Assembly: GCA_016789755.1 (NCBI GenBank)
Contig: JAEUQG010000088.1
Coordinates: 449-64,448, forward strand
Direction: 5' to 3'
From: Bryobacterales bacterium
GTDB taxonomy: Bacteria; Acidobacteriota; Terriglobia; Bryobacterales; Bryobacteraceae
DNA: 64,000 bases
A program made the position numbers and the translations under genes. Below, one piece after another: positions 34,010-54,436 of the stretch. The number at the start of each line of letters is the position of its first letter. Positions within the stretch are counted from its first letter, which is position 1. A model generated the notes under the pieces. That model had not been told where the DNA came from and did no database searches. It saw only the letters and a list, made by a program, of their open reading frames with translations.

Positions 34010-34028
34010 ATCGGCGTTGGCCGCTATA

Positions 34029-35420: not shown

Positions 35421-35470
35421 CCACGGCAAGCAAAGCCACAGAATCGGCGCCTTCTCCCTCTGAGCAGGTA

Positions 35471-37084: not shown

Positions 37085-37091
37085 TTTCCCG

Positions 37092-37820
37092 ATGAATGCC
37101 GACCTTTCTTTAGTTCTGAAGCTCCAGAGCCTCGATTCCCGCACCGCCGACTTGGAGCGCGAAGTGAGCGCCCTCCCAAAACGAATCGCCGAAATCGAAA
37201 AGCAACTCGATACCCACAAGAAGCGCCTCGAACTCGACCGCACCGCCCTCGCCGCCAACGGCAAAGAGCGCAAGAGCCGTGAGGACGACATCAAGGTTCA
37301 GGAACAGAAAATCTCCAAGCTGAAAGACCAGATGCTCAGCGCCAAAACGAACGAGCAGTACCGTGCTTTCCAGCATGAGATCGAGTTTTGCGAAAAGGAA
37401 ATCCGCAGATTCGAGGATCGCATTCTCGACCTCATGGGCGAATCGGAGAAACTCGAAAAGAACGTCAAAGCTGCCGAGGTTTCCCTCGCCGCCGAATCGA
37501 AGCAGGTCGAGGGCGAAAAGCTGGCCGCGAAGCAGACCACCGCCGCCGATCTGCAGGAATTGGCCGCAATCGCGAAGGAGCGCCAAGCCGTGGTCGGTAC
37601 GGTGCGCAAGGACTTTCTCACCCACTATGAGCGCCTCCGCAAACGGCCGGGCGGAATCGCCGTCGCCGAAGCAGTGGACGATACCTGCAGCGTCTGCCAC
37701 ATGAAGATCCGCCCCCAGATCATGCAGGAGTTACGCGCCAGCGCCGATGGACTGAACTTCTGCGAGTCCTGCAAACGCATCATCTACTACAATCCGCCCG
37801 TCATCGCGGACGCGGAGTAG
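37092..37820 (+). CDS. Coiled-coil protein with C-terminal C4 zinc ribbon (COG1579/DUF164-like)
   Basis: Trimmed from ORF 36495..37820 to the ATG at 37092. A long coiled coil is followed by CSVCHMKIRPQ....CESCKRIIY. Confidence 0.8.
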   Translation: MNADLSLVLKLQSLDSRTADLEREVSALPKRIAEIEKQLDTHKKRLELDRTALAANGKERKSREDDIKVQEQKISKLKDQMLSAKTNEQYRAFQHEIEFCEKEIRRFEDRILDLMGESEKLEKNVKAAEVSLAAESKQVEGEKLAAKQTTAADLQELAAIAKERQAVVGTVRKDFLTHYERLRKRPGGIAVAEAVDDTCSVCHMKIRPQIMQELRASADGLNFCESCKRIIYYNPPVIADAE

Positions 37821-37825
37821 CCGCA

Positions 37826-38800
37826 GTGCCGGCGCCGCGCCTGCTGTTTGCGCTCTTGTCCTGCGCCCTCCCCCTCGCCGCTCACGTCATCAGCATGTCG
37901 AGCGGGGATTTCCGCATCGAAGCCAACCGCGCCACTTACGAACTGCGCGTGCCCATCTACGAAATTCAGCACACCGCCGCCCCCGAGAAAATGCTCTTCG
38001 ACAATATCCGCTTCACCGGCGGTGGCGGTCCCGCAAAACTCGTGGAGAAATCCTGCGTCGAAGACAAAGCGGACGCTTCCTTCCGCTGCAAGGCCCGCTA
38101 TGAGTTCCCTGCCCCCGTCGATCGGCTGGATGTCGTGTGCACCTTTCACAGCGTCACCGTGCCCAACCATGTGCACCTCCTCCGCGCCTACCTCGCGGAT
38201 AAAACAGATCAGGCGGTTTTTGATTTTTCAACGCCCAAGGCGACCATTCGCTTCCGGCCTCCCACACCCCTCGAAACATTCGTCACGGCAGCCGGCGCTG
38301 GCTTCGCGCGCGCCTACTCGAGTGGAGCCGCGGTCCTCTTCCTCGCCTGTCTGGCCCTCGCCGCCCGGCGCAACTCGGAACTGGCCCTGATTGCCGCCTC
38401 GTTTCTCCTCGGCGAGATTGCCGCCGCCATCGTCGTCCCCATCGCGGAGTGGAATCCCGCCCCACGCTTCGTGGAAGCCGCCCTCGCCTTGACCGTTGCC
38501 TATCTCGCCGTGGAGATTCTCACGCTCCCTCACGCCGGGCAACGATGGCTCGTCGCGGCGGTCCTCGGTTTGTTCCACGGCCTTTCCTACGCCCTATATT
38601 TGACCAGCACGGGCTACCATCCGCTGCCGGTCTTATTGGGCATGGCCGTGGCCGAACTGCTCGCCATCGCCGTCTTTGCCATGCTCATGGCCCGGATGGG
38701 CCGCGTCTTTTCCTCCATCGCTCCGCTCGCCTCCCGCATCGCCGCCTGCTTCCTCCTCCTCACCGGCATCGGCTGGTTTTTCTTGCGTCTCCGCGCCTGA
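37826..38800 (+). CDS. Membrane protein with periplasmic N-domain and HupE/UreJ-like TM C-domain (tentative)
   Basis: GTG start. Signal MPAPRLLFALLSCALPLAAH, a ~140-aa soluble region, then 5-6 TM segments including LGLFHGLSYA. The family assignment is tentative. Confidence 0.6.
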   Translation: MPAPRLLFALLSCALPLAAHVISMSSGDFRIEANRATYELRVPIYEIQHTAAPEKMLFDNIRFTGGGGPAKLVEKSCVEDKADASFRCKARYEFPAPVDRLDVVCTFHSVTVPNHVHLLRAYLADKTDQAVFDFSTPKATIRFRPPTPLETFVTAAGAGFARAYSSGAAVLFLACLALAARRNSELALIAASFLLGEIAAAIVVPIAEWNPAPRFVEAALALTVAYLAVEILTLPHAGQRWLVAAVLGLFHGLSYALYLTSTGYHPLPVLLGMAVAELLAIAVFAMLMARMGRVFSSIAPLASRIAACFLLLTGIGWFFLRLRA

Positions 38801-38902
38801 TCGTGTATAAAAAGATCTGAGGCCGGGGTGAAACTCTAAACATAAATTCCAGATTGCTTCCGCAACGGGAGCGCTGTATCCGCCGCAAGGCTGGAGGAAT
38901 TT

Positions 38903-40282
38903 ATGTCCGTACTTTCCGTACGTAACCTTTCCTATTCCCATATTCTTGGCGTGTCCCTCTTTGACAACGCCACCTTCTCCATCGATCCCGGCGACCGCAT
39001 CGGCCTCACCGGACCCAACGGCTGCGGCAAAACGACGTTGCTGCGGCTCCTCGCGGGCGACCTCGAACCGCTCCGCGGAGAGATCGTCCGGCGCAAACAT
39101 CTTCGCATTGAAATGTTTTCGCGGCCCGAACGCGAAGACCGTAGCAGCGGCCAGCGCACCCGCGAAGCCATTGCCGCCCTCATGCGGGCCAATGCCGGCC
39201 TCGTCATCCTCGACGAGCCTACCAATCACCTCGACGCCGCCTCCCGCGACTGGCTGGCCAACTGGCTCTTGCGCGACAACGTCACCGCCATTCTGGTTTC
39301 CCATGACCGGGATTTCCTCAACCGTGTGACCAACCGCACCGTCTCCATCGAACGCGGCAAGGTGTCCGTCTACGCTGGCAGCTTCGATGCCGCCCTCGCC
39401 CTCCGCTCCAGCAACGAAGACAGGCAGTGGCAGGACTACGCCGCCCAGCAGCGCAGGCTCGAGGCCGCGGAACAGGCCGCCGAGCGCCGCGACCGCTTGG
39501 CGGCGAAGGTCGCCAAAGCCCCGCCCGGCATCCGCTTGTGCCGCGATTTCTACGGACGGAAAGCTGGAAAAGTCGCCCGCACCGGCAGGCTCCTGCGCGA
39601 GCGCGCCACCCACGCCGAAACCGTCCACAAACCCTGGGAAGAGCAACCCATTCCGGAGTTGGATTTTTCCCGCGTCCCGCCCTCTTCCTCCCTCGCGCTG
39701 CATGTCGAGCGGCTGTCGGCGGGCTACACCGCCGGTAAACCTGTGTTGCGCGACGTGTCGTTCCACACCCACCGCGGCGAGCGCTGGGCCATCACCGGCC
39801 CGAACGGAAGCGGAAAGACAACCCTCCTCCGCGTCCTCCGAAACGAAATCGCCCCCCTTGCCGGCTCGGTGCTTTGGGGCGCCGGGATTCGTGCCGGCTA
39901 CTATGCGCAGGAACATGAACAGTTGAACGATCGCGAATCCCCCCTCGAGGCCTGCCTTCGCATCTCCCCCAACGAGACGGCCGCCCGCACTATGCTCGCC
40001 TGCCTCAAGCTGCGGCAGGACCTCGTCCACCAACCCATCGGCCTGCTCAGCCAGGGCGAGCGCAGCAAAACCGCCCTAACGCAACTACTGCTGGCGAGTA
40101 ACAACGTCCTCCTGCTCGATGAACCCACCAATCACCTCGAGATGGAGGCGCAGGATGCCCTCGCCGCGGCGCTAAAACAATTTCCCGGCCTCCTGTTGTT
40201 TGTCTCCCACGACCAATGGTTCGTGCGCGAAGTCGCCACACACACCCTCGAAATGGGGCAGCAGCCAACAAAGGACGGATAG
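38903..40282 (+). CDS. ABC-F type tandem ATPase (compact, degenerate first NBD)
   Basis: Two Walker A motifs (GPNGCGKTT, GPNGSGKTT) and two Walker B motifs (LVILDEPTNHLD, VLLLDEPTNHLE). Signature-like SSGQRTR and LSQGERSK. A charged linker is present and there is no TM domain. GGAGG lies upstream of the ATG. Confidence 0.85.
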   Translation: MSVLSVRNLSYSHILGVSLFDNATFSIDPGDRIGLTGPNGCGKTTLLRLLAGDLEPLRGEIVRRKHLRIEMFSRPEREDRSSGQRTREAIAALMRANAGLVILDEPTNHLDAASRDWLANWLLRDNVTAILVSHDRDFLNRVTNRTVSIERGKVSVYAGSFDAALALRSSNEDRQWQDYAAQQRRLEAAEQAAERRDRLAAKVAKAPPGIRLCRDFYGRKAGKVARTGRLLRERATHAETVHKPWEEQPIPELDFSRVPPSSSLALHVERLSAGYTAGKPVLRDVSFHTHRGERWAITGPNGSGKTTLLRVLRNEIAPLAGSVLWGAGIRAGYYAQEHEQLNDRESPLEACLRISPNETAARTMLACLKLRQDLVHQPIGLLSQGERSKTALTQLLLASNNVLLLDEPTNHLEMEAQDALAAALKQFPGLLLFVSHDQWFVREVATHTLEMGQQPTKDG

Positions 40283-40561
40283 CTTTCTCTCGAAGGACCA
40301 CCAAGGCAGCGCCGGCCCGCTCGCCAAGATATCGATGGAATTGTACTGGAAGTGCACGCTCTCACTGCGGCGTTTCCCAAACAGGAGACCTGCGGCCTCT
40401 CGTTGCAGATGCGTCGCGCGGCCGTGTCTATTCCGGCAAACATCGCCGAGGGATTCCGCCGTCGTGGCAAGGTGGCGCGTACACCACAGCCATTCTGACT
40501 TCCTCGACTCCTGGCTCCTGACTTCCATATCCCGGATATCAAGGGCGAAGCCCTTGGTTGG
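40283..40561 (+). pseudogene. Decayed four-helix-bundle protein gene (23S rRNA intervening-sequence protein family) remnant
   Basis: The frame after the ABC-F TAG reads ...ARQDIDGIVLEVHALTAAFPKQETCGLSLQMRRAAVSIPANIAEGFRRRGK, the family core motif, then stops at 40496..40498. There is no start codon or N-terminal ~20 aa, and the C-terminal half is recognisable only in another frame (SDFLDSWLLTS). Confidence 0.6.
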
Positions 40562-43500
40562 CTACTTCGGCCCCGCCACCACCCACTTCGCCCCATCCAG
40601 ATCGTTGCGGTAGAACAGCCGCGGAGTCTGCAAACCCTTGCTCTCCCCGGCCACGCCAATCTGAAAGCTCAGCTTGCGGCCATCCCCCTCCGCCTTGCGC
40701 AGTTCCTCGTCCTGCATCTGCGGAACCCGCATCGCCGCATACTGCAACCACTCCAATGCCGACACCTGCCCGTCCCGCGGCAGCGTGTCCGCCTTCCCTC
40801 CCTTCAGCCCTTCTTCCACCAGCGCATACGTCAGGTACCCGTGCCCCAGCCGCGAAGTCTCCAGCGCTGCCTGTTGCGCCTGCGCCGCCGCCAGCACCAG
40901 CATTCCCTTTTCGTATGCCAGTTGCGCCAGCCCCCGGCTATTCATCGGACCGCGCCGGCTGTCATCGCTCTCCAGCAACTGCCCCGACTGGCACGAATCA
41001 ATCACCAGCATCACCCGGCCCGCGTCCATCCCTACCAGAGCTTCCTCCAGATCCAGATCCGTCACACCCCGCTTTACCAGCGAAGGCAGCGCCTCCCTCA
41101 TTCCCGCCGCCGCCCCGTCATAGCCCAGATCGTGCGCCGCCATCACAAACCGGTCGCCATAGGCGAACCCGTGCCCGGCGAAGAACACAATCACGGCATC
41201 CTCCGGCTTCGACGCCTCGCGAATACCGCGCAGCGCATCCATCGCCGCGGCCTTCGTCGCCCCGCCATCCTCCAGCACCTTCACCTCCACCCGCTCGTAC
41301 TCGCCGCGCTCTTCCGCCTTCTCTTTCACCGCCGCGGCAAACGCCCGCGCATCGGCCACCGCATAGCGCAGATCGAACGCGCTATTCGAATAACGGTTGA
41401 TCCCCACCGCCACAACACGCAACGTTGGCTTGCGCCGCAACGACTCGTCCCCAACCACAACCGCCGCCGCCTCCGCACTGCGAATATTGTCCCGGTTGAA
41501 AGCATACGCAGTCAGCTTGTTCTCCCCTGCCACCAGCGCCACATCCGCTTCCAGATCCGCCGCCCCCTCTGCATCCAACACCACCGCGCCACTCCACTTG
41601 CGCACCAGCGACCCGTTGCGAAACAGGCGCACATCGCGCACCCCGCTCCCATCCGCTCCGCCGCGGATCTCCCGCACTCCCACCTGCACGCGAGCCACTC
41701 GCGCATCCTTCCCCACCGCACGAACCCGCACCTCCGGCTGTCTCCGGTCCACGCTCGTAATCACACGCGCCGGCGCCACCCGCGTCCCACGCAGCAACTC
41801 CGCCAGCAGTCCAGGACGAAAATATTCATTGAAGTACATCTCGCCCGCCAGCGCTTCACTGCTCCCCCGGTCCACCCAATGAACCGTATTCCAACCACCC
41901 GGCGTCCCGTCGAAAAGCCCCTCCGCAGTCGTGACCAGCCAGTCCCCATTCCCCAATGCGCGAAGCCGCCCAAGCTCCTTCCCCGTTTCGAGCGACAACA
42001 CCGCAACCCCATCCCCAACCGGCTGGATCACCGCCTTCCCGCCAGGAAGGAATCTCGCACTCTGAAACCCGGTGGATTCGAGCTGTGTCACCATCCGCCC
42101 CGAACCAAGCTCGTACACCGTCGACGTCCCGCCCAATCCGGTGGCCGACATGGGAGCCGAAGCCAACAACAGCCGTCCATCGGGCGAAATCGCGTACGGC
42201 AGCCGCATCTCCGACCCCGCAATCGGCGCTATCTCCCTGCCCGCCGCAACATCGAACCTTCGGATAGGTCCACCCAACGCTCCCGATCCCATCGCCACCA
42301 TCGATCCGTCCGGGCTCAACAACATCGCCTGCGCGTTCAACTCCGCGCCCGGCGCGAACGAAACCAACTTCGTCCCGTTCCTCAGGTCGAACACATGCAT
42401 CTCGGAGCCGTACCGTAGCGGCTTCTTCTTCGACGGAAAAGGAGTCACCGCCACCGCCAGCCGCGATCCATCGCTGTTTACCGCGGAACTCCCGCCCAGG
42501 AACACATCCGGAATGCTCACGCTTCCCTCCACCTTCCCGCTGGCGGCTTCTCTCACCGTAAGGACAAGTTTCAGATCCGATAGACCGCGCCGCGTCACCC
42601 GCGATTCGGACTTCGTCTCCATCAGGTAACCGGACTGCGAGCCCAGCGCTTGCGCCGATTCGAACGTACCCCCAGGGATGGGCTGTCCCGTACTCAGATC
42701 GAACCGCGTCACAGGCGTCTTCCACATCGGCGCACCCGCCGGCATCCGGCGCGCGGCGGCACTCTCGTAGACTTTGTCCACCGTCCCCACTGCCGCCATC
42801 GATCGCCCATCCCGGCCAAACACAATCGAGGTGGTCCCCTCCGGGATGGCGATGCGCACCGGCGCCCGATTCCCCGTCGCCGTGTCCCACCGGTCCACGT
42901 AATTGTCCAAGGACCGGACATACAGCCATCGCGAGTCCGGACTCGACCCCGCCAGCGCCACCGTTGTCGGAAGAGCGGAAGCAACTTCGTTCGCCGCAGT
43001 CACCCTTCCTGCCGGTACCGCCGAGCTTGGCTCGATCGCAACAACCTGCAACACCCCATTCTCCAAAAACGCCGCCCGTCTCCCTTCCCGGTCAATCGCC
43101 GCCATCCGCATCGACCCTTGCGCCGGCAACAGCAAACCTGGAGCAGGCCCCAACACCCTCCCCGTGTCCACATCCAGCAATCGCAGATTCGCAACATCCT
43201 GCGAGCCCGCAACCACGTACGGCCCTTCTCCCAAAGGCATCGCGAACCCCTCTTTGCCCTCCGCGATAATCCTCCGCGTGGCGGCGTCCATCAACCGCCA
43301 GCCCTGGCCCGAGGACCGGACTTCAATCAGACGCCGGCCATCTTTTCCCGCTACCATCGCCACCCCCTCAACATCTGGCGCAACCACCTGCCCGCGCTCC
43401 AGATCGTAAACCCGCCCCCCCGTCCTGCTCACCATCATCGTTGCCCATTTGCCGCTTGGATGAAGCAAGCAGTAAGCCCCCACGATGTCAGTCCGCGTGC

Positions 43501-43981
43501 GCCTCCCCGTCTCCAGATCGAATCGCTCTACCCGCGCCGATTGGGCAGTTCCTTCCCCATCCGCGATGCAGGCGACCACCGAACTCCCCACTTCCGGCAC
43601 AGCCAGTTGCAATACCCCGCGCAGGAAACTTCCCTCGGCGCCGCCCAGCGCTTGCTCCCACAGCTTTCGGCCCTCCTTCACATCGAACACCATCACCGAC
43701 CGGTTCGTACCCACCGCCAGCAGATCCCGCACCGGATGCGCCGCCAGCCACACCGAAAACGCACTCGCATCCACCGCAAAGCTTCGTACCTTCTGCTTCG
43801 TCCCGGCATCGTAGAGATCCACCAATCCCGGGTTCACCGACACCGCCACCCACCGGCTTTGCGGCCCGAACGCCGCAACCTCAAGCCGGCCCCAACTCGC
43901 CCCTTCCCTGACCTGAATTCCCACCGTATCCGTCACCTGCCCCATCGCCGCCATGCTCAGTAGAAAAACAATATTCCGCAT
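40562..43981 (-). CDS. Exported beta-propeller repeat protein with C-terminal caspase (peptidase C14) domain
   Basis: Trimmed to the ATG at 43981 (MRNIVFLLSMAAMGQ, signal-like). About 700 aa of blade-like repeats (LLSPDGSMVAMGS, AISPDGRLLLASA, VNSDGSRLAVAV, FGRDGRSMAAVG...). The C14 domain has LRVVAVGINRY, the His of FFAGHG (41171..41173) and the Cys of VIDSCQSG (40991..40993). Confidence 0.9.
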   Translation of the reverse strand: MRNIVFLLSMAAMGQVTDTVGIQVREGASWGRLEVAAFGPQSRWVAVSVNPGLVDLYDAGTKQKVRSFAVDASAFSVWLAAHPVRDLLAVGTNRSVMVFDVKEGRKLWEQALGGAEGSFLRGVLQLAVPEVGSSVVACIADGEGTAQSARVERFDLETGRRTRTDIVGAYCLLHPSGKWATMMVSRTGGRVYDLERGQVVAPDVEGVAMVAGKDGRRLIEVRSSGQGWRLMDAATRRIIAEGKEGFAMPLGEGPYVVAGSQDVANLRLLDVDTGRVLGPAPGLLLPAQGSMRMAAIDREGRRAAFLENGVLQVVAIEPSSAVPAGRVTAANEVASALPTTVALAGSSPDSRWLYVRSLDNYVDRWDTATGNRAPVRIAIPEGTTSIVFGRDGRSMAAVGTVDKVYESAAARRMPAGAPMWKTPVTRFDLSTGQPIPGGTFESAQALGSQSGYLMETKSESRVTRRGLSDLKLVLTVREAASGKVEGSVSIPDVFLGGSSAVNSDGSRLAVAVTPFPSKKKPLRYGSEMHVFDLRNGTKLVSFAPGAELNAQAMLLSPDGSMVAMGSGALGGPIRRFDVAAGREIAPIAGSEMRLPYAISPDGRLLLASAPMSATGLGGTSTVYELGSGRMVTQLESTGFQSARFLPGGKAVIQPVGDGVAVLSLETGKELGRLRALGNGDWLVTTAEGLFDGTPGGWNTVHWVDRGSSEALAGEMYFNEYFRPGLLAELLRGTRVAPARVITSVDRRQPEVRVRAVGKDARVARVQVGVREIRGGADGSGVRDVRLFRNGSLVRKWSGAVVLDAEGAADLEADVALVAGENKLTAYAFNRDNIRSAEAAAVVVGDESLRRKPTLRVVAVGINRYSNSAFDLRYAVADARAFAAAVKEKAEERGEYERVEVKVLEDGGATKAAAMDALRGIREASKPEDAVIVFFAGHGFAYGDRFVMAAHDLGYDGAAAGMREALPSLVKRGVTDLDLEEALVGMDAGRVMLVIDSCQSGQLLESDDSRRGPMNSRGLAQLAYEKGMLVLAAAQAQQAALETSRLGHGYLTYALVEEGLKGGKADTLPRDGQVSALEWLQYAAMRVPQMQDEELRKAEGDGRKLSFQIGVAGESKGLQTPRLFYRNDLDGAKWVVAGPK

Positions 43982-43999
43982 CGCTTCCCTCCTCCTCAC

Positions 44000-45070
44000 T
44001 CACGGACGTGGGATGTTCCGCCGCCACCGCCGTGACAACGTATCCCCAGCCCCGCAGTCCAGGTCCAGCACATGCCAGTCGAAGTAGCTGTCCACCCGGT
44101 ACGTGAAGCTGCACCTCCGCCCGTTGAACGTCGCCTCCGTCGCTCCCGCCTGAAACGTCCCGCTGCGCCGCACCCCTGTCGTTCCGTCGAACAGCGCGAA
44201 CGTGCCATCGGCGCTGATCTCCATGTTCGTGTAGCCGCTATAGTCCATCCACCGCCCCGCAAACGGCACAGCGCTTGCCCGCGGCGCAGGATGCGACACC
44301 GCCGCCGGCGGATTCTCCATCAGCACCGCCGATGCCCCGCCTGTTCTCCTCCATACCTGCATCGCGCCCCCGCACTGCATGCGCATGATCTGATTCCCGC
44401 TCCCCACATCCGTCGTCACCCCCAGAAACTGACACGGAGCATTGTTGTTGATCGCAAACTCGCGGCCCGACAATCGCCACGTGCCGTCTCCCGTTTCCCC
44501 GCTCTGCGAATTGTAATACCGGAACGTCCCGTTCAGCCTCAGCTCCAACGTCGCCACATTCGACGAATACGGCCGCCACTGCCCCGCGATCGCCGCCATC
44601 TCACCTCCCGCGCCAACCACTCCGCCACCCGCCCCGCCTCGCGACACCATCGACCTCCGGTTCCGCTCCGGACCCGTCGCCGTAATGGTCCCCGCCGACC
44701 GGTCCACCCCATCCAGCAATTGCACCCGTACAACCCCGCCTTCGGCCCGCATCCGGAACGGCAATGCTTGCCCCTTCAAATTCAGCGGCGTCACCCACTC
44801 ACCCGGAATGGCGTCGAACGTGTAATGCGGCTCCCCAATCTCCCAATTCGTAATGTTCGGACCGCCCGGCGTCCCCTCCGGAGCCGAGATCGTTCCCGTC
44901 AGGTCGTTGATCACAATCCAATCCACCCGGCTGTGAATGGCAAACGGCCGGCATTGCGGCGCATGATCGGCGAATGCCGTCCTGCTGCGCATCGCCTCGC
45001 AGCGAACTCGCGGCTGGGCCGAAGCCAACCCCGCGAAAACAACCAAACCCAGCATCAGGGCGCCACTCAT
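44000..45070 (-). CDS. Hypothetical exported protein with internal ~85-aa duplication
   Basis: An ATG at 45070 follows AGGAGGGGGA and gives the signal-like MSGALMLGLVVFAGLASAQ. An upstream ATG at 45277 also has a GGAG 9 nt upstream. Two similar segments are present (IAGQWRPYSS...NGTF...CGG...WRR and FAGRWMDYSG...DGTF...CGAG...WRR). No family recognised. Confidence 0.7.
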   Translation of the reverse strand: MSGALMLGLVVFAGLASAQPRVRCEAMRSRTAFADHAPQCRPFAIHSRVDWIVINDLTGTISAPEGTPGGPNITNWEIGEPHYTFDAIPGEWVTPLNLKGQALPFRMRAEGGVVRVQLLDGVDRSAGTITATGPERNRRSMVSRGGAGGGVVGAGGEMAAIAGQWRPYSSNVATLELRLNGTFRYYNSQSGETGDGTWRLSGREFAINNNAPCQFLGVTTDVGSGNQIMRMQCGGAMQVWRRTGGASAVLMENPPAAVSHPAPRASAVPFAGRWMDYSGYTNMEISADGTFALFDGTTGVRRSGTFQAGATEATFNGRRCSFTYRVDSYFDWHVLDLDCGAGDTLSRRWRRNIPRP

Positions 45071-45364
45071 TCCCCCTCCTCTCAACCAACTTCCTGCACC
45101 CATCGGGCTCACCAGCGGCAGTTGCCACGCCTTGCACAACACAGCCACTTCACTCGCCAGCGGCCCCGGACCCGCCGCCGCCACCACACCCGCCCATTCC
45201 GGTCTCACCTCCCTCTGGTAATGAGCCCGCTGCGCCGGGCTCGCTGTCCCGCCGCCAATGCTTGCCGTTCGATTCATTGCGGCATTCTCCTTCCCGCCCG
45301 GCGCTTCTCTCCGCCGGGTCTCAATTGGGTAGGCGCAGCTTTTCGCAAAATCCCAAAACTTTTT

Positions 45365-46231
45365 TCACTCCACCGCGATTTCATACCGGAACAGCAGCGC
45401 TTGCCCGGCGTTCGCCGCCACATGCAACAGCATCTGCGGCATCGGATCGTCCTGCGTCAGCAGCTTGCCCCCTTCCCCCGCCGCGCTCTTCTCCAACTCC
45501 GTCCACAGATCCCGCGATCCCGCCGCCAGATCCAAACGAGTCACCGCTTGCCCCCACTCCCGCTCCATCTTCTCCACCAGGCTCCGCGGTAACCGCCTTG
45601 CTTCCGCCCCCGGCGCAAGTTCCTCCAACGGCTTTCCCGTCACCACAATCAGTAACTCCTCCCCCACCTGATCCGCACCGGCCATCTCCAGCGTCATCGC
45701 CGGCAATTCGTCCGTTTGCGCCGGAATATCCACCATCATCCCCGCCTGTACCCGGTTATCGCCCTTCCGTATGCCCCTTTGCGGAAAAACCAGGAACGGA
45801 TCGCCCGTCTTCCCTCCGCGGAACTTCTCGCGGTCGATCACATACAAATACCCGTCCCTCGGCACCTCGATCGAAACCCGCACTTTCGTCCCGTTCGCTA
45901 GCGCAGTCCCGCTCGACACCCGTTCCGCCACCATGCCCACCTTCTCCTTCGATTGCGGACGGTACACCAACAATCGGGGAGCACGCCCATCGCCCGCATT
46001 GGGTTCCCGCAGCCGCCACACCGTAACCCCAACAGCCGATCCACCTCCAACAGGAGCGCTGCTTTGCGCCCCCACGCTGTACTTCACCGCCGGTCGTGCT
46101 TTCCCCACCTTGCCAGCCGGCCGCTTCTGCCGGAAACCGCTATCCCAGATCTGACGCAACCCATCGTCCTGACCGGCTGCTGTCCCTGTCACCGATAAAA
46201 TGCAGCCGAGCCACAAAACCCTAACGTCCAT
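45365..46231 (-). CDS. Secreted DUF4384-like domain protein
   Basis: Trimmed to the ATG at 46231 (MDVRVLWLGCILSVTGTAAGQ, signal-like). The core is GTKVRVSIEVPRDGYLYVIDREKF....DPFLVFPQ.....DNRVQAGMMVDIP......GEELLIVVTGKP. Confidence 0.75.
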   Translation of the reverse strand: MDVRVLWLGCILSVTGTAAGQDDGLRQIWDSGFRQKRPAGKVGKARPAVKYSVGAQSSAPVGGGSAVGVTVWRLREPNAGDGRAPRLLVYRPQSKEKVGMVAERVSSGTALANGTKVRVSIEVPRDGYLYVIDREKFRGGKTGDPFLVFPQRGIRKGDNRVQAGMMVDIPAQTDELPAMTLEMAGADQVGEELLIVVTGKPLEELAPGAEARRLPRSLVEKMEREWGQAVTRLDLAAGSRDLWTELEKSAAGEGGKLLTQDDPMPQMLLHVAANAGQALLFRYEIAVE

Positions 46232-46328
46232 GGAACCCCCTCCTCCGCAAACTATCACGTGTCACTCTGTAGCGCGCTCACCAACAGCCCATGTTTTTCT
46301 AACGAAAATCTAACGTCCCCTGCCCGCT

Positions 46329-47969
46329 CTACTCCACCGCCACCTCCACCGCCCATGCAAACCCCTCCCCCGGACCCTCCACCGTAGCCTCTCCCTTCCC
46401 CTCCACAAACTCAACTCCCGCCCGCAGTCTCCCCAGCAGCTTCCGTACCGCCTCACGCTGACTCGCCGCCACCACCTCCCGCGCTTCCGATAGCCCTAAC
46501 GATGCCGGCTCCAACTCCACCATCGGCTTCGCACCCCAAATCAGCCAAAGAACGTTGCGTCCTCTCTCCGCCTCAAACCAACTGCTTTCCGGAATCGTGA
46601 ACGACTGCCCCGCTTTGAGAAACGAGAGCCCCCGATTGGCCGTCGGCGACGGAAAAAGCGCCACCAGCGGCGCCTTCCCCCGCTGCTCCGAATAGACGTA
46701 TAGAAAGCCGTCTTTGCCCGCCCTCACCTCCAATCGAAATCCCTCCGATCGCCCAAGCGCCAACCTATCCCTCACCTGTCTTCGCCCCCCATCCCGTCCC
46801 ACAATCGTGAAGGAGAACCTCGCCCTTTCCGCCGCCCCCCTCATCACCGGCGCCGGCGCCTGCCCTTCCCAACCGCGAAAAGCAACCCATGCTCCCGCCA
46901 TCGATACCAAACCCAGCAGACCAACCAGCACCCGCCTCTGCCCGCCTCGCTTCCCCCCTCCCTCCAACAACGTCTGCGCCAGCCGCCGCCCGAACTCCGC
47001 CGCATTCTCCGGCCTCCTCCGCGCATCCACCGCAAGCGCCGCCGCGATCAGTTCATCGGTCTCCCCAGGAATCTCCGGCCGTATCGTCTTCGCCCGCTTC
47101 CACTCCCCATCCCGCCGCAGAAACATCCGCCGCAACTCATTGTCCGCCTCGAACGGCAACACTCCCGTGAGAATTTCGTACGCCACCACCCCGAACGCGT
47201 AAATATCCGACGCCTTCCCCAATTGCCCGTCCCACTGCTCCGGAGCCATGTAAGCCTCCGTTCCCACCAGCGTCCTCGTCACCGCTCCGCTGCCGTCCGC
47301 CGCCAGCAGGCCCGCGATTCCGAAGTCGATCAGCTTCACGTGATATTCCCCGCCCGCCAGCGGCTGCAGCATGATGTTGGCCGGCTTCAGATCGCGGTGC
47401 AGAATCCTCGCCGCGTGCGCCGCATCCAACGCTCCCCCAATCTGCCGCACCAGATCCGCCGCCACCTCCAGCGCCACGGGTCCGCCCCGAATCAACTCCT
47501 CCAGCGGGATCCCCTCCACATACTGCATCACCAGGTACGGAGTGCCTTCCTCGAACGGCGTCCCCTTCTCCAGCCGTCCCGTGCCGAGCAGCCCCACTAC
47601 CCCCGGATGCCGCAGTTGCGCCAGCGCCTTGGCCTCTTCCTCGAACTTCCGCTCGTGCCACGCGCTCGCCGATACGTGCCGCAGCACCTTCACCACCACA
47701 AGCTGCCCGTAGGTCCTCGAATCCTCCGCCAGAAAAACTATCCCGAATCCCCCTTCCCCTAACTTGCGAACCACGCGGTAGCGCCCCGCCAGCACCAGTC
47801 CCTCCCCGTCCGCCGTCGCCTCCGCCCCCGCCCGCAACAATGACAACACCTCGTCCCGTACCGCGCGATCCCCGGTGGCCCCATCGACATACTGCTGCCG
47901 CTGCCACTCCGGCAGATCCACCGCCCCTGCCAGAATCTCTTTCACCCTGCGCTGCTGCTCAGGACTCAA
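46329..47969 (-). CDS. Transmembrane Ser/Thr protein kinase with DUF4384-like ectodomain
   Basis: Hanks motifs GEGGFGIVF, VVVKVL, HRDLKPANIML, DFGIAG, GTEAYMAPEQ. One TM segment (VLVGLLGLVSMAGAWVAF). The ectodomain reads FRLEVRAGKDGFLYVYSEQRGKAPLVALFPSP...LKAGQSFTIP...NVLWLIWGAKP. 11-bp overlap with the sigma gene. Confidence 0.92.
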   Translation of the reverse strand: MSPEQQRRVKEILAGAVDLPEWQRQQYVDGATGDRAVRDEVLSLLRAGAEATADGEGLVLAGRYRVVRKLGEGGFGIVFLAEDSRTYGQLVVVKVLRHVSASAWHERKFEEEAKALAQLRHPGVVGLLGTGRLEKGTPFEEGTPYLVMQYVEGIPLEELIRGGPVALEVAADLVRQIGGALDAAHAARILHRDLKPANIMLQPLAGGEYHVKLIDFGIAGLLAADGSGAVTRTLVGTEAYMAPEQWDGQLGKASDIYAFGVVAYEILTGVLPFEADNELRRMFLRRDGEWKRAKTIRPEIPGETDELIAAALAVDARRRPENAAEFGRRLAQTLLEGGGKRGGQRRVLVGLLGLVSMAGAWVAFRGWEGQAPAPVMRGAAERARFSFTIVGRDGGRRQVRDRLALGRSEGFRLEVRAGKDGFLYVYSEQRGKAPLVALFPSPTANRGLSFLKAGQSFTIPESSWFEAERGRNVLWLIWGAKPMVELEPASLGLSEAREVVAASQREAVRKLLGRLRAGVEFVEGKGEATVEGPGEGFAWAVEVAVE

Positions 47970-48537
47970 ACAGGCTCCCCCCCAATTCCCGCCGCAACCA
48001 TCGCTCCGCGTAGATCCACTCCTGCCGGGCTTTCTCGTCCGACACCTCCATCACCTCCCCGATCTCGCGGAAATTCAGCCCGCAAATCAAATGCATTTGC
48101 GCAACCTTTCCCGCCATTTCATCCCCCGCCAGCAGCTTCTCCAGCGCGATGTCGATCTCCACCCACGCATACCGGCGCCCGTCGGTGGCGCTCCCTTCTT
48201 CGAGCGGCGCCCGCACCCCCTCCCTCCTCACCGCCATCCGCCGCCGCGCCGAATCGATGAGTATCTGCCGCATCACCCGGGCCGCCGCCGAAAAGAACTC
48301 ATCTCCATTCCGCCACCGCGGCGCCTGCGCCCGGAACATCCGCACGAACGCCTCATTCACCAGCGCCGTGGGCTGAAGCGTGTGCCCCACCCTCTCCCCC
48401 GCCATGAAATGCCGCGCGATGCGCTTCAACCCCGCCTGCGCCGCCTCCAGCAGTTCGTTCTCCACATCGTGCCCCTCTTGGAGTTGTTCGATAAGCTGCG
48501 TGATCCCGGCCTTCGGTTCCACCACATGAGTATACAT
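47959..48537 (-). CDS. ECF sigma factor, TIGR02999/ECF43-like (kinase-associated type)
   Basis: Trimmed to the ATG at 48537. GITQLIEQLQEG......LKRIARHFMAGERVGHTLQPTALVNEAFVRM...EFFSAAARVMRQILIDSARRR...region-4 HTH NFREIGEVMEVSDEKARQEWIYAERWLRREL. No anti-sigma gene is adjacent. Confidence 0.88.
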   Translation of the reverse strand: MYTHVVEPKAGITQLIEQLQEGHDVENELLEAAQAGLKRIARHFMAGERVGHTLQPTALVNEAFVRMFRAQAPRWRNGDEFFSAAARVMRQILIDSARRRMAVRREGVRAPLEEGSATDGRRYAWVEIDIALEKLLAGDEMAGKVAQMHLICGLNFREIGEVMEVSDEKARQEWIYAERWLRRELGGSLFES

Positions 48538-48684
48538 CCCGCCGCCGCCCCCCTCGCGCCGCCGGTCACCGGCATGCAAAAAAAATTCTTCCCCCCAAAG
48601 TCCATCGAAACAAACACCCGTCTCCCACCGGCCCCAGCTCGCCATCCATTATGAGGAAATGCAACCCATTATCATCAAATCGTC

Positions 48685-49308
48685 ATGAAACACTTCACCG
48701 CACCGCAAATCGCCGTCCTCCAAGCCCTCGCCGCGGGCATGACCATCACCGCTGCCGCCGCGCACGCCTCCGTCCCCCGGCCCGACGTTTACTCCTGGTT
48801 CGATGACCCCGCCTTCGTCCATGCCTTCGCTCTCGGCCATCAGGAATACGCCCTCACCGTCCGCGACCGCATGCTGTCCCTCAGCGCCAAAGCACTCGAT
48901 ACCCTCGAAGCTCTCCTCGATAACCCCAAAGCCTCACCCGCCGTTCTCCTCCGCGCCGCCCTCGCACTGCTCACCCGCAAGAATTGGAATCTCCCCGCCC
49001 CGCAAGTCTCCGAATGCCTCACCCTCTCCACCGATACCGCCCAAAAGGCTGCCGCCGACCCCGGCGTCTCCGCCGACGAATCCGCCTACCACCGTCAATT
49101 GACCGAAATCTACTCCAACCCAACCCCAACCGCCAAATCCGCCCCCACTGACTCGTCGCCCACTCCAACACCCCGCAACGCCTCATGCCCCTGCGGCAGC
49201 GGTCAGAAATTCAAACGCTGCTGCGGACGCAATGCCCCGCCCGTCCTTCATGGCACACCTTACCCTTTAGCCACACCGCTCCCTATGGCCACACAGCCGG
49301 AAATCTGA
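48685..49308 (+). CDS. Hypothetical protein with C-terminal SEC-C metal-binding motif
   Basis: CPCGSGQKFKRCCG near the C-terminus, a P/T/S-rich linker, and an N-terminal region (FTAPQIAVLQALAAGMTITAAAAHASVPRPDVYSWF) resembling a small HTH. Divergent from the sigma operon. Confidence 0.7.
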   Translation: MKHFTAPQIAVLQALAAGMTITAAAAHASVPRPDVYSWFDDPAFVHAFALGHQEYALTVRDRMLSLSAKALDTLEALLDNPKASPAVLLRAALALLTRKNWNLPAPQVSECLTLSTDTAQKAAADPGVSADESAYHRQLTEIYSNPTPTAKSAPTDSSPTPTPRNASCPCGSGQKFKRCCGRNAPPVLHGTPYPLATPLPMATQPEI

Positions 49309-49319
49309 CCTCGAAATTC

Positions 49320-49703
49320 CTACGCCCCAACCGCCAGCGCTTCCTCATGGCACGGCACCACCATCGCCGAGAAAGCTGCCAAAGAATAGGGCGATTGCGG
49401 CAGCCACCCCCGCAACCGGTATTCCAATCGCAAATACCGGACGTCAGGGCGACCCGACAAGTCTAATATGTGTTGGTAACGTCCACAATAATACCGGTGC
49501 GGTAGCCGGAGCACAGGGCGCGTGCCCCAGTCCGAGCCGTCCGGCGAACCCCAAACCACAGCATCCAGCGTCTGCTGCTCCATCATGCGCGTGATTTGCA
49601 GGGTGATTTCGATCGGTTGCCCGGCAGCATCGCCCAGGGCAACCACAGGACCGCAGCCATTATCATGGGCGGTCGCTTCAGGAAAGAGGACGATCGGCTT
49701 CAT
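49320..49703 (-). CDS. Hypothetical protein (127 aa)
   Basis: Clean ORF 13 bp downstream of the aminotransferase gene on the same strand. No family recognised. Confidence 0.5.
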   Translation of the reverse strand: MKPIVLFPEATAHDNGCGPVVALGDAAGQPIEITLQITRMMEQQTLDAVVWGSPDGSDWGTRPVLRLPHRYYCGRYQHILDLSGRPDVRYLRLEYRLRGWLPQSPYSLAAFSAMVVPCHEEALAVGA

Positions 49704-49716
49704 GGGAGATCTCCAC

Positions 49717-50907
49717 TTAGGTGAGTCTCTTTAAACGTTGCCTTGCCTCCTCCAATGTCTCATATTTTTTGCAGAAACAGAAGCGAATTAGTTGATGACC
49801 ATCCTCGGCCCGCAGAAAGAAACTCGACCCCGGCACCGCAGCCAAGCCACACCTCTGCAAAAGATGCATGGCGAACTCCGTGTCATTCGCAAACCCAAAC
49901 CCCGAGATGTCCGCCATCACATAATACGCCCCCGTCGGCCGAAACGGCCGGAACCCCGTCTCCTCCAACACCGAAACGATATGGTCGCGCTTCTTCTGAT
50001 ACTCGCGCCCCAACTCGGCGTAATATTCATCGTCCAGCCCCAGAGCTGTAACCCCCGCCATTTGCAGCGGATGCGCCGCACCCACAGTGAGAAAATCGTG
50101 TACTTTGCGGATCGAATCCGTCAGGTCCGGAGCTGCCAGCACCCACCCCACTCGCCACCCCGTCACCGAATACGTCTTCGACATCGAGTTCACCAGAATC
50201 CCGCGCTCCCGCATCCCCGGAACCGCCAGCACCGGCACATGCTCCGCCCCGTCGTACAGGATGTGCTCGTAGATCTCGTCCGTAATGCACAAAGCATCGA
50301 ACTCTTGGCACAATCCCGCAATATACGCCAGATCTTCGGCCGAAAACACCCGCCCCGTCGGATTGTTCGGGCTCGTCACAATCACCGCCTTCGTCCGGGC
50401 CGTAAACGCCCGCCGCAACTCATCCCGGTCGAAGGTCCAATCCGGCGGCCGCAGCGCCACCACCCGCCGCACCGCCGAGCACAACTCCGAATCCGGTCCG
50501 TAATTCTCATAGTACGGCTCGAAAACAATAATTTCATCGCCCGGATTCGTCACCGCCAGCAGCGTCGCAATCATCCCCTCGGTCGCCCCGCAGCAGACCG
50601 TGATCTCGCGCTCCGGATCCAGTTCCAAGCCATAGTGCCGCCGGTACTTGGCCGCAATCGCGTCACGAAACGGCTTGGCCCCCCAGGTGATCGAATACTG
50701 GTTGAACTCGGCGTCGATCGCCGCATGCGCCGCGGCCTTCAGCATCCCTGGCGCCGGAAAGTCCGGAAACCCCTGCGCCAGATTCACCGCCTTGTATTGG
50801 ATCGCCAGCCGCGTCATCTCGCGAATCACCGATTCGGTGAAATTCCGCGTCCGCGCGCTACGAAAACGTTCTCGAATTGCCTGCCCCGTCTCGGTTGGGA
50901 TTGCCAT
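49717..50907 (-). CDS. Class I/II PLP-dependent aminotransferase (YbdL/kynurenine-aminotransferase-like)
   Basis: NLAQGFPDFP...QYSITWGAKPFRDAIA...ITDEIYEHI...NSMSKTYSVTGWRVGW (PLP Lys context)...IRFCFCK. Confidence 0.9.
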   Translation of the reverse strand: MAIPTETGQAIRERFRSARTRNFTESVIREMTRLAIQYKAVNLAQGFPDFPAPGMLKAAAHAAIDAEFNQYSITWGAKPFRDAIAAKYRRHYGLELDPEREITVCCGATEGMIATLLAVTNPGDEIIVFEPYYENYGPDSELCSAVRRVVALRPPDWTFDRDELRRAFTARTKAVIVTSPNNPTGRVFSAEDLAYIAGLCQEFDALCITDEIYEHILYDGAEHVPVLAVPGMRERGILVNSMSKTYSVTGWRVGWVLAAPDLTDSIRKVHDFLTVGAAHPLQMAGVTALGLDDEYYAELGREYQKKRDHIVSVLEETGFRPFRPTGAYYVMADISGFGFANDTEFAMHLLQRCGLAAVPGSSFFLRAEDGHQLIRFCFCKKYETLEEARQRLKRLT

Positions 50908-50910
50908 GGA

Positions 50911-51529
50911 GTGCCTTACCCGAAGGTAACCCAGCCGAACTCCGTCCGTAAAGCCGCCCTAACTGCCCGCCCGCTCCCGGCTCACGTTCCCCTGCATGCC
51001 CTTACCCGCCGACAGCCCCGCCGAACTCTGTCCGTACAGCCGCCGGTACACCGAATCCGCCGCGCCGCATCGGCCTTCCCGTCAGCGTCCTTTCAGAACC
51101 AGCCAACGGCGTCCGGCTTAATTGCCCGCCCGCACCCGGCTCACGTTCCTCTGCATTCCTTTACCCGTCGGCAGCCTCGCCGAACTCTGTCCGTACAACC
51201 GCCGGTACACCGAATCCGCAGCGCTGCATCGGCTTTCCCGTCAGCGTCCTTCCAGAGCCGGCCAACGGCGTCCGGCTCAATTGCCCGCCCGCACCCGGCT
51301 CACGTTCCCCTGCATGCCCTTACCCGCCGGCAGCCCCGCCGAACTCTGTCCGTACAGCCGCCGGTACACCGAATCCGCAGCGCTGCATCGGCCTTCCCGT
51401 CAGCGTCCTTTCAGAACCAGCCAACGGCGTCCGGCTCAATTGCCCGCCCGCTCCCGGCTCGCGTTTCCCTGCATTCCCTTACCCGCCGGCAGCCCCGCGG
51501 AACTCTGTCCGTACAGCCGCCGGTACACC
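50911..51529. repeat. 159-bp tandem repeat array derived from the 3' end of the lytic transglycosylase gene
   Basis: Full units lie at 50961..51119, 51120..51278 and 51279..51437, each starting a(a/c)(t)tgcccgcccgc and about 90-95% identical by eye. A 92-bp partial unit at 51438..51529 is the real gene 3' end. A degenerate ~48-bp partial lies at 50911..50958. Confidence 0.9.
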
Positions 51530-53616: not shown

Positions 53617-54436
53617 GCAGATAATCGGACATGGACGGCGCGGCCAACAGGAATTCCTGCCGGTAGCGTTCCCGCCCGGAATCGATCGGCTCTTTCAGTT
53701 GGACGTACAACGATGCATTCCGGCGTCCGGAATCGACCGCCGGCTGTTCGAATAGCAGCAGACGGGCCACTTCCCGCCGCGCGAAGTTCTTCGCCTTCGT
53801 CTCCAGCACTTGCCGCTCGTAGCTCTTCTCCGCCGGAGCAATCTGGATCAACACCGGCCCCGCCACGGCCTCGGCTTCCGGTACAGGCTCGGGCTCAGCG
53901 GCGGGCGGAGCGGCCACCGGCACGGGCATCGTCTGCGCCGCCAGCATCGCCACCAGCTCCAACGCCTCCCGCGGCGGCTTCACCTTGTCCTCGGCATAGA
54001 GCACGGCACACACCGTCTCCCCATGGAACACAGGCACCAGGTAGCAGCGCGGACTCAGCGCCTCGCCCAGCCGCGCGGCCGCCTCCTCCCCTAACTCAGC
54101 GGCGGTGCGCATCGTGATCACCGTGTCGCGCGTCTCCATCGCCATGGCGAACGCCGGCGCCTCGGCCACCTCCCCGGCGGCAAACACTGCCACCCGCGAG
54201 GCATAGGCCGACGCCCCCTCTTCGAGAATGGTCTTCCATTCCTCCACCGACTCCGCCATCCGCAGCCGCCGCGCCAGTTGGTTCAACCGCTCCGATTGCG
54301 CCCGGTCCCGCCGCTCCAACTCCTTGGCCAGCTTCGCCGACAACTCCGCCAGACGGTTCGTCAGCGCGTGCTCGGTCTGCGCGAACGCCTGCCGCGTGGC
54401 TACTTCAAAATCGGCAAATGATTCCGCCAGAGACAT
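53540..54436 (-). CDS. Hypothetical protein (coiled-coil N-terminus, GAF-like middle, conserved-looking basic C-terminal module)
   Basis: 298-aa ORF divergent from the histidine kinase gene. Its 3' end overlaps the slt start region by 47-77 bp. No family confidently recognised. Confidence 0.6.
   Translation of the reverse strand: MSLAESFADFEVATRQAFAQTEHALTNRLAELSAKLAKELERRDRAQSERLNQLARRLRMAESVEEWKTILEEGASAYASRVAVFAAGEVAEAPAFAMAMETRDTVITMRTAAELGEEAAARLGEALSPRCYLVPVFHGETVCAVLYAEDKVKPPREALELVAMLAAQTMPVPVAAPPAAEPEPVPEAEAVAGPVLIQIAPAEKSYERQVLETKAKNFARREVARLLLFEQPAVDSGRRNASLYVQLKEPIDSGRERYRQEFLLAAPSMSDYLHEELVRTLANDDPSKLGSEYPGALR

Follow-up and report, generated by a model that had tools for sequence, protein, structure and literature searches.

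A candidate extracytoplasmic signalling module of Acidobacteriota linking clan CD proteases and DUF4384 proteins to kinase and ECF sigma factor genes

The 64,000-nt stretch of chromosomal DNA analysed here (the window) comes from a metagenome-assembled genome (MAG) of Bryobacterales, in the phylum Acidobacteriota. Five open reading frames (ORFs), all on the minus strand, span positions 40562-48645 and encode a sigma factor of the extracytoplasmic function (ECF) kind, a Hanks-type kinase, a soluble DUF4384 protein, a near-orphan protein and a protease that joins a propeller region to a C14 caspase domain. We propose, with a probability of roughly 45%, that this locus represents a module for extracytoplasmic signalling that is conserved in Acidobacteriota, in which the protease would provide the input to the kinase and the sigma factor. 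Across related genomes, the core of the module appears to consist of a clan CD protease and a DUF4384 protein, both with predicted export, to which a kinase and a sigma factor are frequently added in subsets of loci. The locus in the window is laid out as follows.

47959..48537 (long ORF from 48645), minus strand: ECF sigma factor gene
46329..47969, minus strand: Hanks kinase gene
45365..46231 (long ORF from 46258), minus strand: gene for the exported DUF4384 protein
45071..45364, minus strand: 294-nt spacer from the DUF4384 gene to the likely start of the fourth, alternatively the 5' part of the ORF from 45277
44000..45070 (long ORF from 45277), minus strand: gene for the near-orphan protein
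40562..43981 (long ORF from 43999), minus strand: propeller-caspase gene

Gene starts were chosen by Shine-Dalgarno-like sequences together with the point at which homology begins. The junctions, read from the sigma factor gene to the caspase gene, then measure -11, 97, 294 (87 with the longer fourth ORF) and 18 nt, the same values and the same co-directional arrangement as in the original prediction, which had been made from the letters of the sequence alone. No terminator-like sites were found in any of the four junctions by a sequence scan.

Conserved synteny in related genomes, which had been named beforehand as one of the tests that could refute the prediction, was found. In another Bryobacteraceae MAG (L001), homologs of all five genes lie in the same order, with identities to the window proteins of 57% for the sigma factor, 44% for the kinase, 42% for the DUF4384 protein and 38% for the caspase, whose catalytic dyad is kept; the small exported protein shares 47% identity, confined to the C-terminal repeat of the orphan. 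A scan of one genome per GTDB species returned relatives of the DUF4384 protein at 337 loci, and a census was made of the best 80 of these plus L001 (81 loci, of which 79 gave usable anchors and 46 have full flanks), using tblastn with parts of the window proteins and iterated hidden Markov models built in the analysis, on simple ORF calls. Of the best 80 of the 337 loci, nearly all carry an Acidobacteriota label (Blastocatellia, Pyrinomonadaceae, Vicinamibacterales, Terriglobia/Acidobacteriaceae and Bryobacterales) and a few a Clostridia or Heliobacteriaceae label, and the census genomes are not near-identical (identities 34-48%). A clan CD protease gene, either C14 or CHAT, is present at 41 of the 46 full-flank loci and directly adjacent to the DUF4384 gene at 36. 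Kinases with a DUF4384 ectodomain occur at 28/46, protease and kinase together at 26/46, and the combination of protease, kinase and an ECF sigma factor next to the kinase at 15/46. Within 5 kb of the DUF4384 gene, the density of protease genes reaches 9.8 per 100 kb, against 0.8 per 100 kb in the distal flanks (79 loci), a 12-fold enrichment. The gene orders seen are kinase-protease-DUF4384, kinase-DUF4384-protease (as in the window) and a divergent protease gene upstream of sigma-kinase-DUF4384. Of the five-gene module that had been proposed, the pairing of protease and DUF4384 protein is therefore what is conserved, the kinase and sigma factor belong to subsets only, and the orphan drops out.

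The position of the protease is filled by two kinds of enzyme. In the commonest locus class, the ~3.2-kb gene between the kinase and DUF4384 genes encodes a TPR-CHAT protein (Pfam CHAT 1.2e-67, with tetratricopeptide repeats, TPRs), and in the census the adjacent protease is of the TPR-CHAT type at 35 loci and of the propeller-C14 type at 21. The His/Cys dyad is kept in 26/26 C14 and 42/42 CHAT domains of the module, and signal-peptide-like N-termini were recognised by a heuristic in 23/23 C14 proteins and 31/35 CHAT proteins. The DUF4384 proteins group in clades by protease type and not by taxonomy in a neighbour-joining tree, which has no bootstrap support; those of Blastocatellia fall in both the C14-type and the CHAT-type clades. 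Such displacement of one protease by another of the same clan argues for a functional partnership with the DUF4384 protein. Since C14 is interchangeable with TPR-CHAT, the theme of the module is a clan CD protease and not a caspase specifically; the caspase on which the original prediction centred is indeed present in the window, but sister loci fill the same slot with TPR-CHAT.

Two protease genes may also stand beside a single DUF4384 gene, as at L022 (4697-7540 and 10767-14069; CHAT plus C14), L078 (1457-9719; two C14), and L042 (2220-9193) and L066 (1008-9833; two CHAT each). Several genomes carry at least two separate paralogous modules with different repeat sensors. Together, the double proteases and multiple modules suggest expansion and mixing of sensor proteases.

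The protease of the window has 1139 amino acids (aa) and is identical to P0001, 'caspase family protein [Bryobacterales bacterium]'. Its parts are listed below.

41882-43924 (-): tandem WD40-type propellers, aa ~20-700
41447-41749 (-): beta-sandwich, aa ~745-845
40793-41413 (-): C14 caspase/orthocaspase-type domain, aa 857-1063
41171-41173 (-): catalytic His937, in FAGHG (1139-aa numbering)
40991-40993 (-): catalytic Cys997, in DSCQSG (1139-aa numbering)

Peptidase_C14 (PF00656) matches at 7.4e-13, with 49.1 bits against a cut-off of 21.4, and its D-S-C-Q-S-G sequence, which resembles the D-x-C-H-S-G motif of metacaspases and orthocaspases, is the one pointer to proteolytic activity and to P1 specificity (Arg/Lys for orthocaspases). 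The AlphaFold2 (AF2) model has an overall predicted local distance difference test (pLDDT) score of 62.8, with values of 80-93 for the beta-sandwich (aa ~750-845) and the C14 domain (aa ~850-1100) and moderate confidence only for the all-beta N-terminal ~700 aa. Foldseek matches the latter region to tandem WD40 double propellers (Utp21, Pwp2, Apaf-1) at E 1e-16 to 1e-20 over ~700 columns; the sequence of the C14 domain gave nothing at E<0.01 against Protein Data Bank (PDB) chains. The architecture that had been read from the sequence, with ~700 aa of propeller and a C14 domain with an intact dyad, is upheld by these results, and the signal peptide by the heuristic. Three WD40-caspase homologs outside the module (P0002, P0005 and P0009), from a JGI metagenome, a Logan assembly and a Xanthobacteraceae genome, were checked and have no DUF4384, kinase or sigma factor genes as neighbours, so that a propeller-caspase architecture is not by itself enough to mark a locus as a module.

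The DUF4384 protein (288 aa, identical to NCBI entry P0026) comprises a signal peptide recognised by heuristic, a conserved N-terminal motif, the DUF4384 beta-sandwich and a C-terminal domain. Its match to PF14326 is marginal (27.5 bits, cut-off 27), and 28/32 members of its family match the same profile at E<=1e-3; the family is well conserved, with 68 clusters of about 290-330 aa. In the AF2 model, which is confident (pLDDT 88, predicted template modelling score 0.85), the N-terminal region is flexible and contains a helix; a beta-sandwich and, at the C-terminus, an alpha/beta part make up the rest. These data agree with the earlier description of a signal-peptide protein carrying a second DUF4384-like domain. 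A search with a DUF4384-core profile (A3) for fusions to proteases or kinases gave only 14 short fragments, and the evidence for fusions therefore rests on the literature, where DUF4384 is found with kinase and (pseudo-)orthocaspase domains (PMC6426788, bioRxiv 10.1101/2025.01.12.632604) and is reported among the accessory domains that orthocaspases carry (PMC7475262, PMC6426788). DUF4384 is also one class of the C-terminal domain of Csx30, a binding partner of an ECF sigma factor that the TPR-CHAT protease Csx29 cleaves at Csx30 itself (bioRxiv 10.1101/2022.08.17.504292).

Topology was judged throughout by heuristics, namely Kyte-Doolittle (KD) hydrophobicity and N-terminal signal-like segments. 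In the DUF4384, orphan and caspase proteins alike, a short N-terminus that is basic or neutral is followed by 10-15 hydrophobic residues and a junction of the A-x-A/G-Q type; Sec signal peptides are thus predicted for all three downstream proteins, as had been claimed.

The kinase (546 aa) matches Pkinase (PF00069) at 1.9e-45, and its translation contains the VVVK, HRDLKPAN, DFG and APE motifs of a Hanks-type kinase. It is divided as follows.

47805-47969 (-): N-terminal extension, ~55 aa
aa 64-321 of the same gene: kinase domain
about 46872-46934 (-): transmembrane (TM) segment, aa 346-366, the single KD-hydrophobic segment by heuristic
46332-46871 (-): ectodomain with a DUF4384-like core, aa ~367-546

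The ectodomain shares 29% identity with the DUF4384 protein of L001 (BLASTP, E 3.9e-6), and the kinase of locus L016 reaches 24.5 bits against DUF4384. The ectodomain appears to be a shortened paralog of the soluble DUF4384 protein. Among the kinases with DUF4384 ectodomains, 17 have both the N-terminal extension and an upstream sigma factor gene, 25 have neither and two have the extension without a detected sigma factor gene; the extension of ~55 aa thus tracks the upstream sigma factor, which suggests that it has a role in the relationship between the kinase and the sigma factor.

The sigma factor is a protein of 192 aa that starts at the ATG at 48537, a start backed by a G-rich Shine-Dalgarno sequence; the Pfam match begins at aa 47 of the long ORF. 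It matches Sigma70_ECF (PF07638) at 1.5e-34 and TIGR02999 with 140.2 bits (cut-off 126.15), and its stop is overlapped by the kinase gene by 11 nt. No anti-sigma domain was found, the divergent neighbour being a SEC-C-motif protein. The sigma2.2 motif reads LQPTALV, with QPTA in place of DAED, and LQxT(A/V) replaces the canonical DAED in 20/20 full-length module sigma factors aligned. The sigma factor thereby shows features of the ECF43 group, with its TIGR02999/Sigma70_ECF match, the adjacent Hanks kinase, the lack of an anti-sigma gene and an uncharged sigma2.2 with a Thr, and the assignment as a TIGR02999/ECF43-like factor without an anti-sigma gene has held. Sigma factors of ECF43 are without DAED and are activated by kinase phosphorylation of a Thr at this motif, as seen for EcfP (STTA, second Thr phosphorylated by PknT) and EcfK (QATE, Thr51 phosphorylated by PknS), where the phosphate gives the charge needed for binding of the beta-prime subunit (PMC8999054, PMC13147305). 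A kinase-to-sigma relay in the window, as put forward in the original prediction, fits this hallmark, because QPTA stands for DAED and its Thr falls at the phospho-site of EcfP and EcfK.

The gene content, domains, catalytic residues, export-type N-termini, synteny, C14/CHAT interchange and co-variation of DUF4384 clades with protease type are observations, from which we infer physical interaction, cleavage, a direction of signalling, phosphorylation and a regulon in the following series of steps. The repeat domain of the protease, a WD40 or TPR array, would bind a ligand in the periplasm or envelope, and binding would control the protease, which would dock on or cleave DUF4384 domains. The soluble DUF4384 protein and the kinase ectodomain would be alternative, competing partners or substrates, so that the state of the protease could be read by the kinase ectodomain. 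The kinase would then phosphorylate the conserved Thr in the QPTA of sigma2.2, and the phosphate would supply the negative charge missing from the sigma factor, allowing binding to RNA polymerase and switching on a regulon that probably includes the module operon itself. A stronger version is possible but doubtful, in which a 'protease-activated receptor kinase' operates: the exported, apoptosome-like sensor protease, with its tandem WD40 or TPR array and caspase-fold domain, would recognise a specific periplasmic protein and cleave the DUF4384 ectodomain of the kinase, directly triggering phosphorylation of the sigma factor, with the soluble DUF4384 protein as a decoy competing with the kinase ectodomain for cleavage. 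If so, DUF4384 would serve clan CD proteases generally, as a domain to dock on or as a substrate, which would unify the module with Csx30 of Craspase and with the many fusions of DUF4384 to caspases and kinases.

Several results weigh against the proposed input route. About one third of the full-flank loci have protease and DUF4384 genes without a kinase, and many kinase-bearing loci lack a sigma factor gene, for instance the Blastocatellia loci L018, L064, L070 and L073; the relay is therefore not obligatory, and at the Blastocatellia loci with kinase, caspase and DUF4384 genes the kinase must have other substrates. No protease of any kind was found at L020, L021, L028, L035 and L048. The original prediction of a one-TM Hanks kinase with a DUF4384-like ectodomain stands for the kinase domain and, by heuristic, for the single TM segment; the ectodomain scores 18.2 bits against PF14326, below the cut-off of 27, and alignment of its profile with that of the soluble DUF4384 family (hhalign) gives E 2.8e-5 at a probability of only 74%. 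The DUF4384 model found nothing in the PDB at E<1e-3, just generic beta-sandwiches (PDE6-delta, NPC2, Ig) that give no lead to its function. Synteny does not fix the direction of flow either, and protease and DUF4384 genes that lie downstream of an ECF sigma factor gene could be its output.

Two of the exceptional arrangements may be described for themselves. At L048 (5644-9739) the sigma factor gene, a split kinase gene and the DUF4384 gene are present without a clan CD protease, whose place is taken by a pyrroloquinoline quinone (PQQ)-dependent dehydrogenase that carries a cytochrome c domain, together with a penicillin amidase. At L028 and L035, a lone DUF4384 gene lies beside ClpX- and Lon-like genes, judged from N-terminal sequences only.

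Comparison with described systems suggests that the module may join two known kinds, kinase-activated ECF signalling and sigma factor control coupled to a clan CD protease. The ECF43/Hanks pairs EcfP-PknT of Vibrio parahaemolyticus and EcfK-PknS of Xanthomonas citri resemble the window pair in the lack of an anti-sigma gene, in the adjacent one-pass kinase with an N-terminal extension ahead of the kinase domain, and in an uncharged sigma2.2 with the phospho-site Thr (STTA, QATE and QPTA, respectively). Unlike them, the window kinase has a DUF4384-like ectodomain and not TPRs, its phosphorylation of the sigma factor is predicted from sequence, and the pair sits in a conserved module beside a clan CD protease with predicted export and a soluble sensor-domain paralog, an input apparatus that is not described for PknT or PknS. 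In Myxococcus xanthus, a periplasmic TPR-CHAT domain controls the ECF sigma factor DdvS (PMC11506125). DdvA-DdvS is thus similar in coupling a periplasmic clan CD module to an ECF sigma factor, and the sister modules described here use TPR-CHAT as well. However, DdvA is itself an anti-sigma factor, a single polypeptide that combines a cytoplasmic, zinc-binding anti-sigma domain with a TM segment and a periplasmic TPR-CHAT, with release by RseP-type proteolysis, whereas the module protease is a separate soluble protein with predicted export and its signal is predicted to pass through the kinase. Neither an anti-sigma domain nor a TM anchor was detected on the module protease, and the window locus is for this reason not of the DdvA type.

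Craspase (type III-E; Csx29 TPR-CHAT, Csx30, Csx31 and RpoE) likewise brings together a clan CD protease, a DUF4384 partner and an ECF sigma factor, and the proposal there is that proteolysis frees the sigma factor from control. It differs in being cytoplasmic, RNA-guided and dependent on Cas7-11, whereas in the module a kinase is interposed and the protease and DUF4384 protein are predicted to be exported. There are no cas genes among the flanking genes in the window at about 31.7-64 kb, which are housekeeping or transport genes, and since the parts are also predicted to be exported, the locus is not a Craspase set. Orthocaspases and WD40-caspases share with the window protein the C14 p20-type domain, the His-Cys dyad, the D-x-C-x-S-G motif and fused WD40 repeats; discussion of those described mostly casts them as cytoplasmic proteins of cell death or as STAND-linked ones, whereas the window family is predicted to be exported and is coupled to DUF4384, kinase and sigma factor genes, unlike the stand-alone WD40-caspase homologs outside Acidobacteriota. 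No STAND, MoxR/vWA or GAP1 NTPase domain occurs in the five proteins, the adjacent ABC-F being an unrelated housekeeping protein, and the locus is therefore not a STAND-linked caspase system; sigma factors are not mentioned in the account of STAND/NTPase-linked caspase conflict systems by Kaur et al. (2020). CHAT, subtilase and carboxypeptidase genes form the context of ECF54, but without kinases or DUF4384 (PMC8999054). No published description of the module was found in the literature searched, in keeping with the earlier statement that no characterised system of this composition is known, a statement which left the relevant precedents, DdvA and Craspase, unnamed.

The same genes can be read with the arrow of signalling reversed. 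The sigma factor and kinase might sense an envelope cue by the DUF4384 ectodomain alone, and the protease and soluble DUF4384 protein would then be their regulon, the former a secreted degradative or antagonistic enzyme, the latter an inhibitor, chaperone or anchor dedicated to it; free protease, bound by the kinase ectodomain, might provide feedback. We consider this rather unlikely, although it is typical of ECF sigma factors to regulate their own operon and to be transcribed together with target genes (PMC7826278), and the co-directional genes, whose short junctions contain no terminator-like sites, are in line with it, as are the kinase-free pairs of protease and DUF4384 genes, which are expected of a self-sufficient enzyme and its partner, and the S8 subtilase gene that follows the module in some loci. 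Variable gene order, however, fits a complex of interacting parts better than an operon of regulator and targets, large WD40 or TPR arrays look like ligand sensors and are unlike a bulk degradative enzyme, and the paralogy of the ectodomain together with the co-variation of clades and proteases is simplest if the kinase ectodomain also meets the protease. The subtilase gene encodes an Inhibitor_I9-like propeptide and lies at L016:12121-13497, ~1.2 kb downstream of the DUF4384 gene, with a copy of a repeated element (described below) upstream of it at 11859; related Pyrinomonadaceae loci have a subtilase gene at the equivalent position. The L016 subtilase might be a member of the regulon.

A special case of the proposed input route is envelope surveillance, in which a protein of a phage, predator or competitor would be recognised by the propeller or TPR protease as it enters the periplasm, and the kinase and sigma factor would induce defence genes elsewhere. 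Precedents exist in DdvA, whose periplasmic TPR-CHAT anti-sigma controls an island of the cyclic oligonucleotide-based anti-phage signalling system (CBASS) and CRISPR (PMC11506125), in PknS-EcfK (ECF43), which induces a type VI secretion system against amoebae (PMC13147305), and in Craspase, which joins a CHAT protease, the DUF4384-type Csx30 and an ECF sigma factor (bioRxiv 10.1101/2022.08.17.504292); the occurrence in several genomes of at least two paralogous modules with different repeat sensors is typical of diversifying recognition systems. We nevertheless hold a role in conflict or immunity to be unlikely, as a PADLOC scan gave only generic matches to kinase and caspase domains, the flanks of the window locus are housekeeping genes (MurJ, ABC-F, aminotransferase and SLT transglycosylase), and there is no evident effector and no STAND NTPase, toxin, CRISPR or phage gene in the flanks examined, the absence of STAND, toxin and phage context having been noted from the start. 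That the genes are independent and merely adjacent, in a phylum with a high density of pairs of ECF sigma factors and serine/threonine kinases and of WD40-caspases, is highly improbable. Extra sigma factor and kinase genes are common, L001 having a second of each within 10 kb, and WD40-caspase homologs elsewhere stand alone; yet the linkage is kept across several acidobacterial classes, with the 12-fold enrichment of the protease beside the DUF4384 gene; analogous proteins occupy the same slots, and DUF4384 clades co-vary with the type of protease.

The fourth gene of the window was considered as a core component and rejected, as its product has no family, six distant relatives and a partial homolog at one of 81 loci. 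The orphan has 356 aa, with a signal peptide (heuristic), an N-domain at aa 20-135, a Gly-rich linker and two internal repeats of ~80 aa each (161-242 and 270-351). Pfam, NCBIfam and PADLOC gave no match, and among 1.84 billion representatives there are only six relatives, all distant (E<1e-3). The only homolog in the census, that of L001, is partial and covers the C-terminal repeat (47% over 85 aa). The protein had been described as exported and of no recognised family, which agrees with the lack of a Pfam or NCBIfam match; as part of the module it is not sustained, and it is probably a lineage-specific accessory outside the conserved module. In CHAT-class modules, a conserved small ORF of ~120-160 aa occupies a gap of 630-900 nt between the kinase and TPR-CHAT genes. 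Its product ends in a ...DGsWsAqaq motif and an acidic tail, has neither a Pfam family nor an N-terminal hydrophobic segment, shows no significant similarity to the window orphan, and may be a further component of the module. It was located at the following positions, and also at L025, L034 and L050.

L007:6107-6574, small CHAT-class ORF
L012:6093-6554, small CHAT-class ORF
L015:5937-6437, small CHAT-class ORF
L016:6227-6640, small CHAT-class ORF
L023:6336-6731, small CHAT-class ORF
L033:6207-6605, small CHAT-class ORF
L036:2882-3337, small CHAT-class ORF
L051:5609-6052, small CHAT-class ORF
L056:6101-6577, small CHAT-class ORF

Housekeeping genes flank the locus in the window, on one side those for MurJ, a HupE-like protein and an ABC-F ATPase, and on the other those that encode a protein with a SEC-C motif, an aminotransferase and a TPR-SLT transglycosylase. 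The gene divergent from that of the sigma factor, at 48685-49308 (+), encodes 207 aa with a C-terminal SEC-C metal-binding motif (PF02810, 1.9e-8), beyond which a domain scan recognised no domain. Between the two divergent genes, upstream of the sigma factor gene, lies the intergenic region 48538..48684 (-), with one sigma-70-like promoter match at 48648-48675 and the sequence GGAAGAATTTTTTT at 48579-48592, 42-55 nt upstream of the sigma factor start. GGAAGAATTTTTTT resembles a repeated element found upstream of module sigma factor genes in Pyrinomonadaceae loci, a weak resemblance that 43/100 shuffles also match. The element, GGGAAGAACTTTATTGTTC, flanks the Pyrinomonadaceae modules, with one matching core in the window upstream of the sigma factor gene. 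It measures ~23-36 nt, reads yTyAGGGAAGAACTTTATTGTTCGTGAAC and occurs in tandem groups of 2-3 copies with spacings of 55 and 67 nt, upstream of the module sigma factor genes and again before the genes that follow the module, and it could be a promoter, an operator or a lineage-specific repeat. Copies were located as follows.

L007:2950-3151, 12489-12647 and 14043-14134
L012:12548-12690
L025:6898-6975
L036:9376-9520
L056:3274-3350
window 48579-48592

A promoter motif shared by the window and these loci was considered and set aside; the pattern was defined after the window had been seen, and with 43 of 100 shuffles matching it is not claimed as a promoter.

The wider region, at ~34000-54000 of the window, has an extreme strand asymmetry at third codon positions, whatever the orientation of the genes and with housekeeping genes included: plus-strand genes have C3 >> G3 (skew -0.34 to -0.68) and minus-strand genes G3 >> C3 (skew +0.41 to +0.67). 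At 46-48 kb the sliding-window GC skew reaches -0.40, and its sign switches near 59-60 kb; no dnaA was found near the skewed region of the window. The skew is a regional mutational bias or a replication-related switch, and no property of the module; a foreign island, as might be inferred from the strong negative GC skew, was rejected because the skew covers ~34-54 kb and housekeeping genes on both strands.

The signals that activate the sigma-phosphorylating Hanks kinases of ECF43 and its relatives are essentially unknown, and the module offers a concrete, testable input apparatus for them. It also provides a first functional hypothesis for DUF4384, by which the domain would be a partner or substrate of clan CD proteases, on the grounds of the conserved linkage at 79 anchored loci, the interchange of C14 and CHAT and the co-variation of clades with protease type. 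It appears that bacteria commonly use proteases of the caspase fold for regulation outside the cytoplasm, and not in cytoplasmic systems of cell death and defence only. The module is abundant and often present in multiple copies in Acidobacteriota, a dominant but poorly understood phylum of soil, where it may represent an undescribed route by which the cutting of proteins outside the cell controls gene expression.

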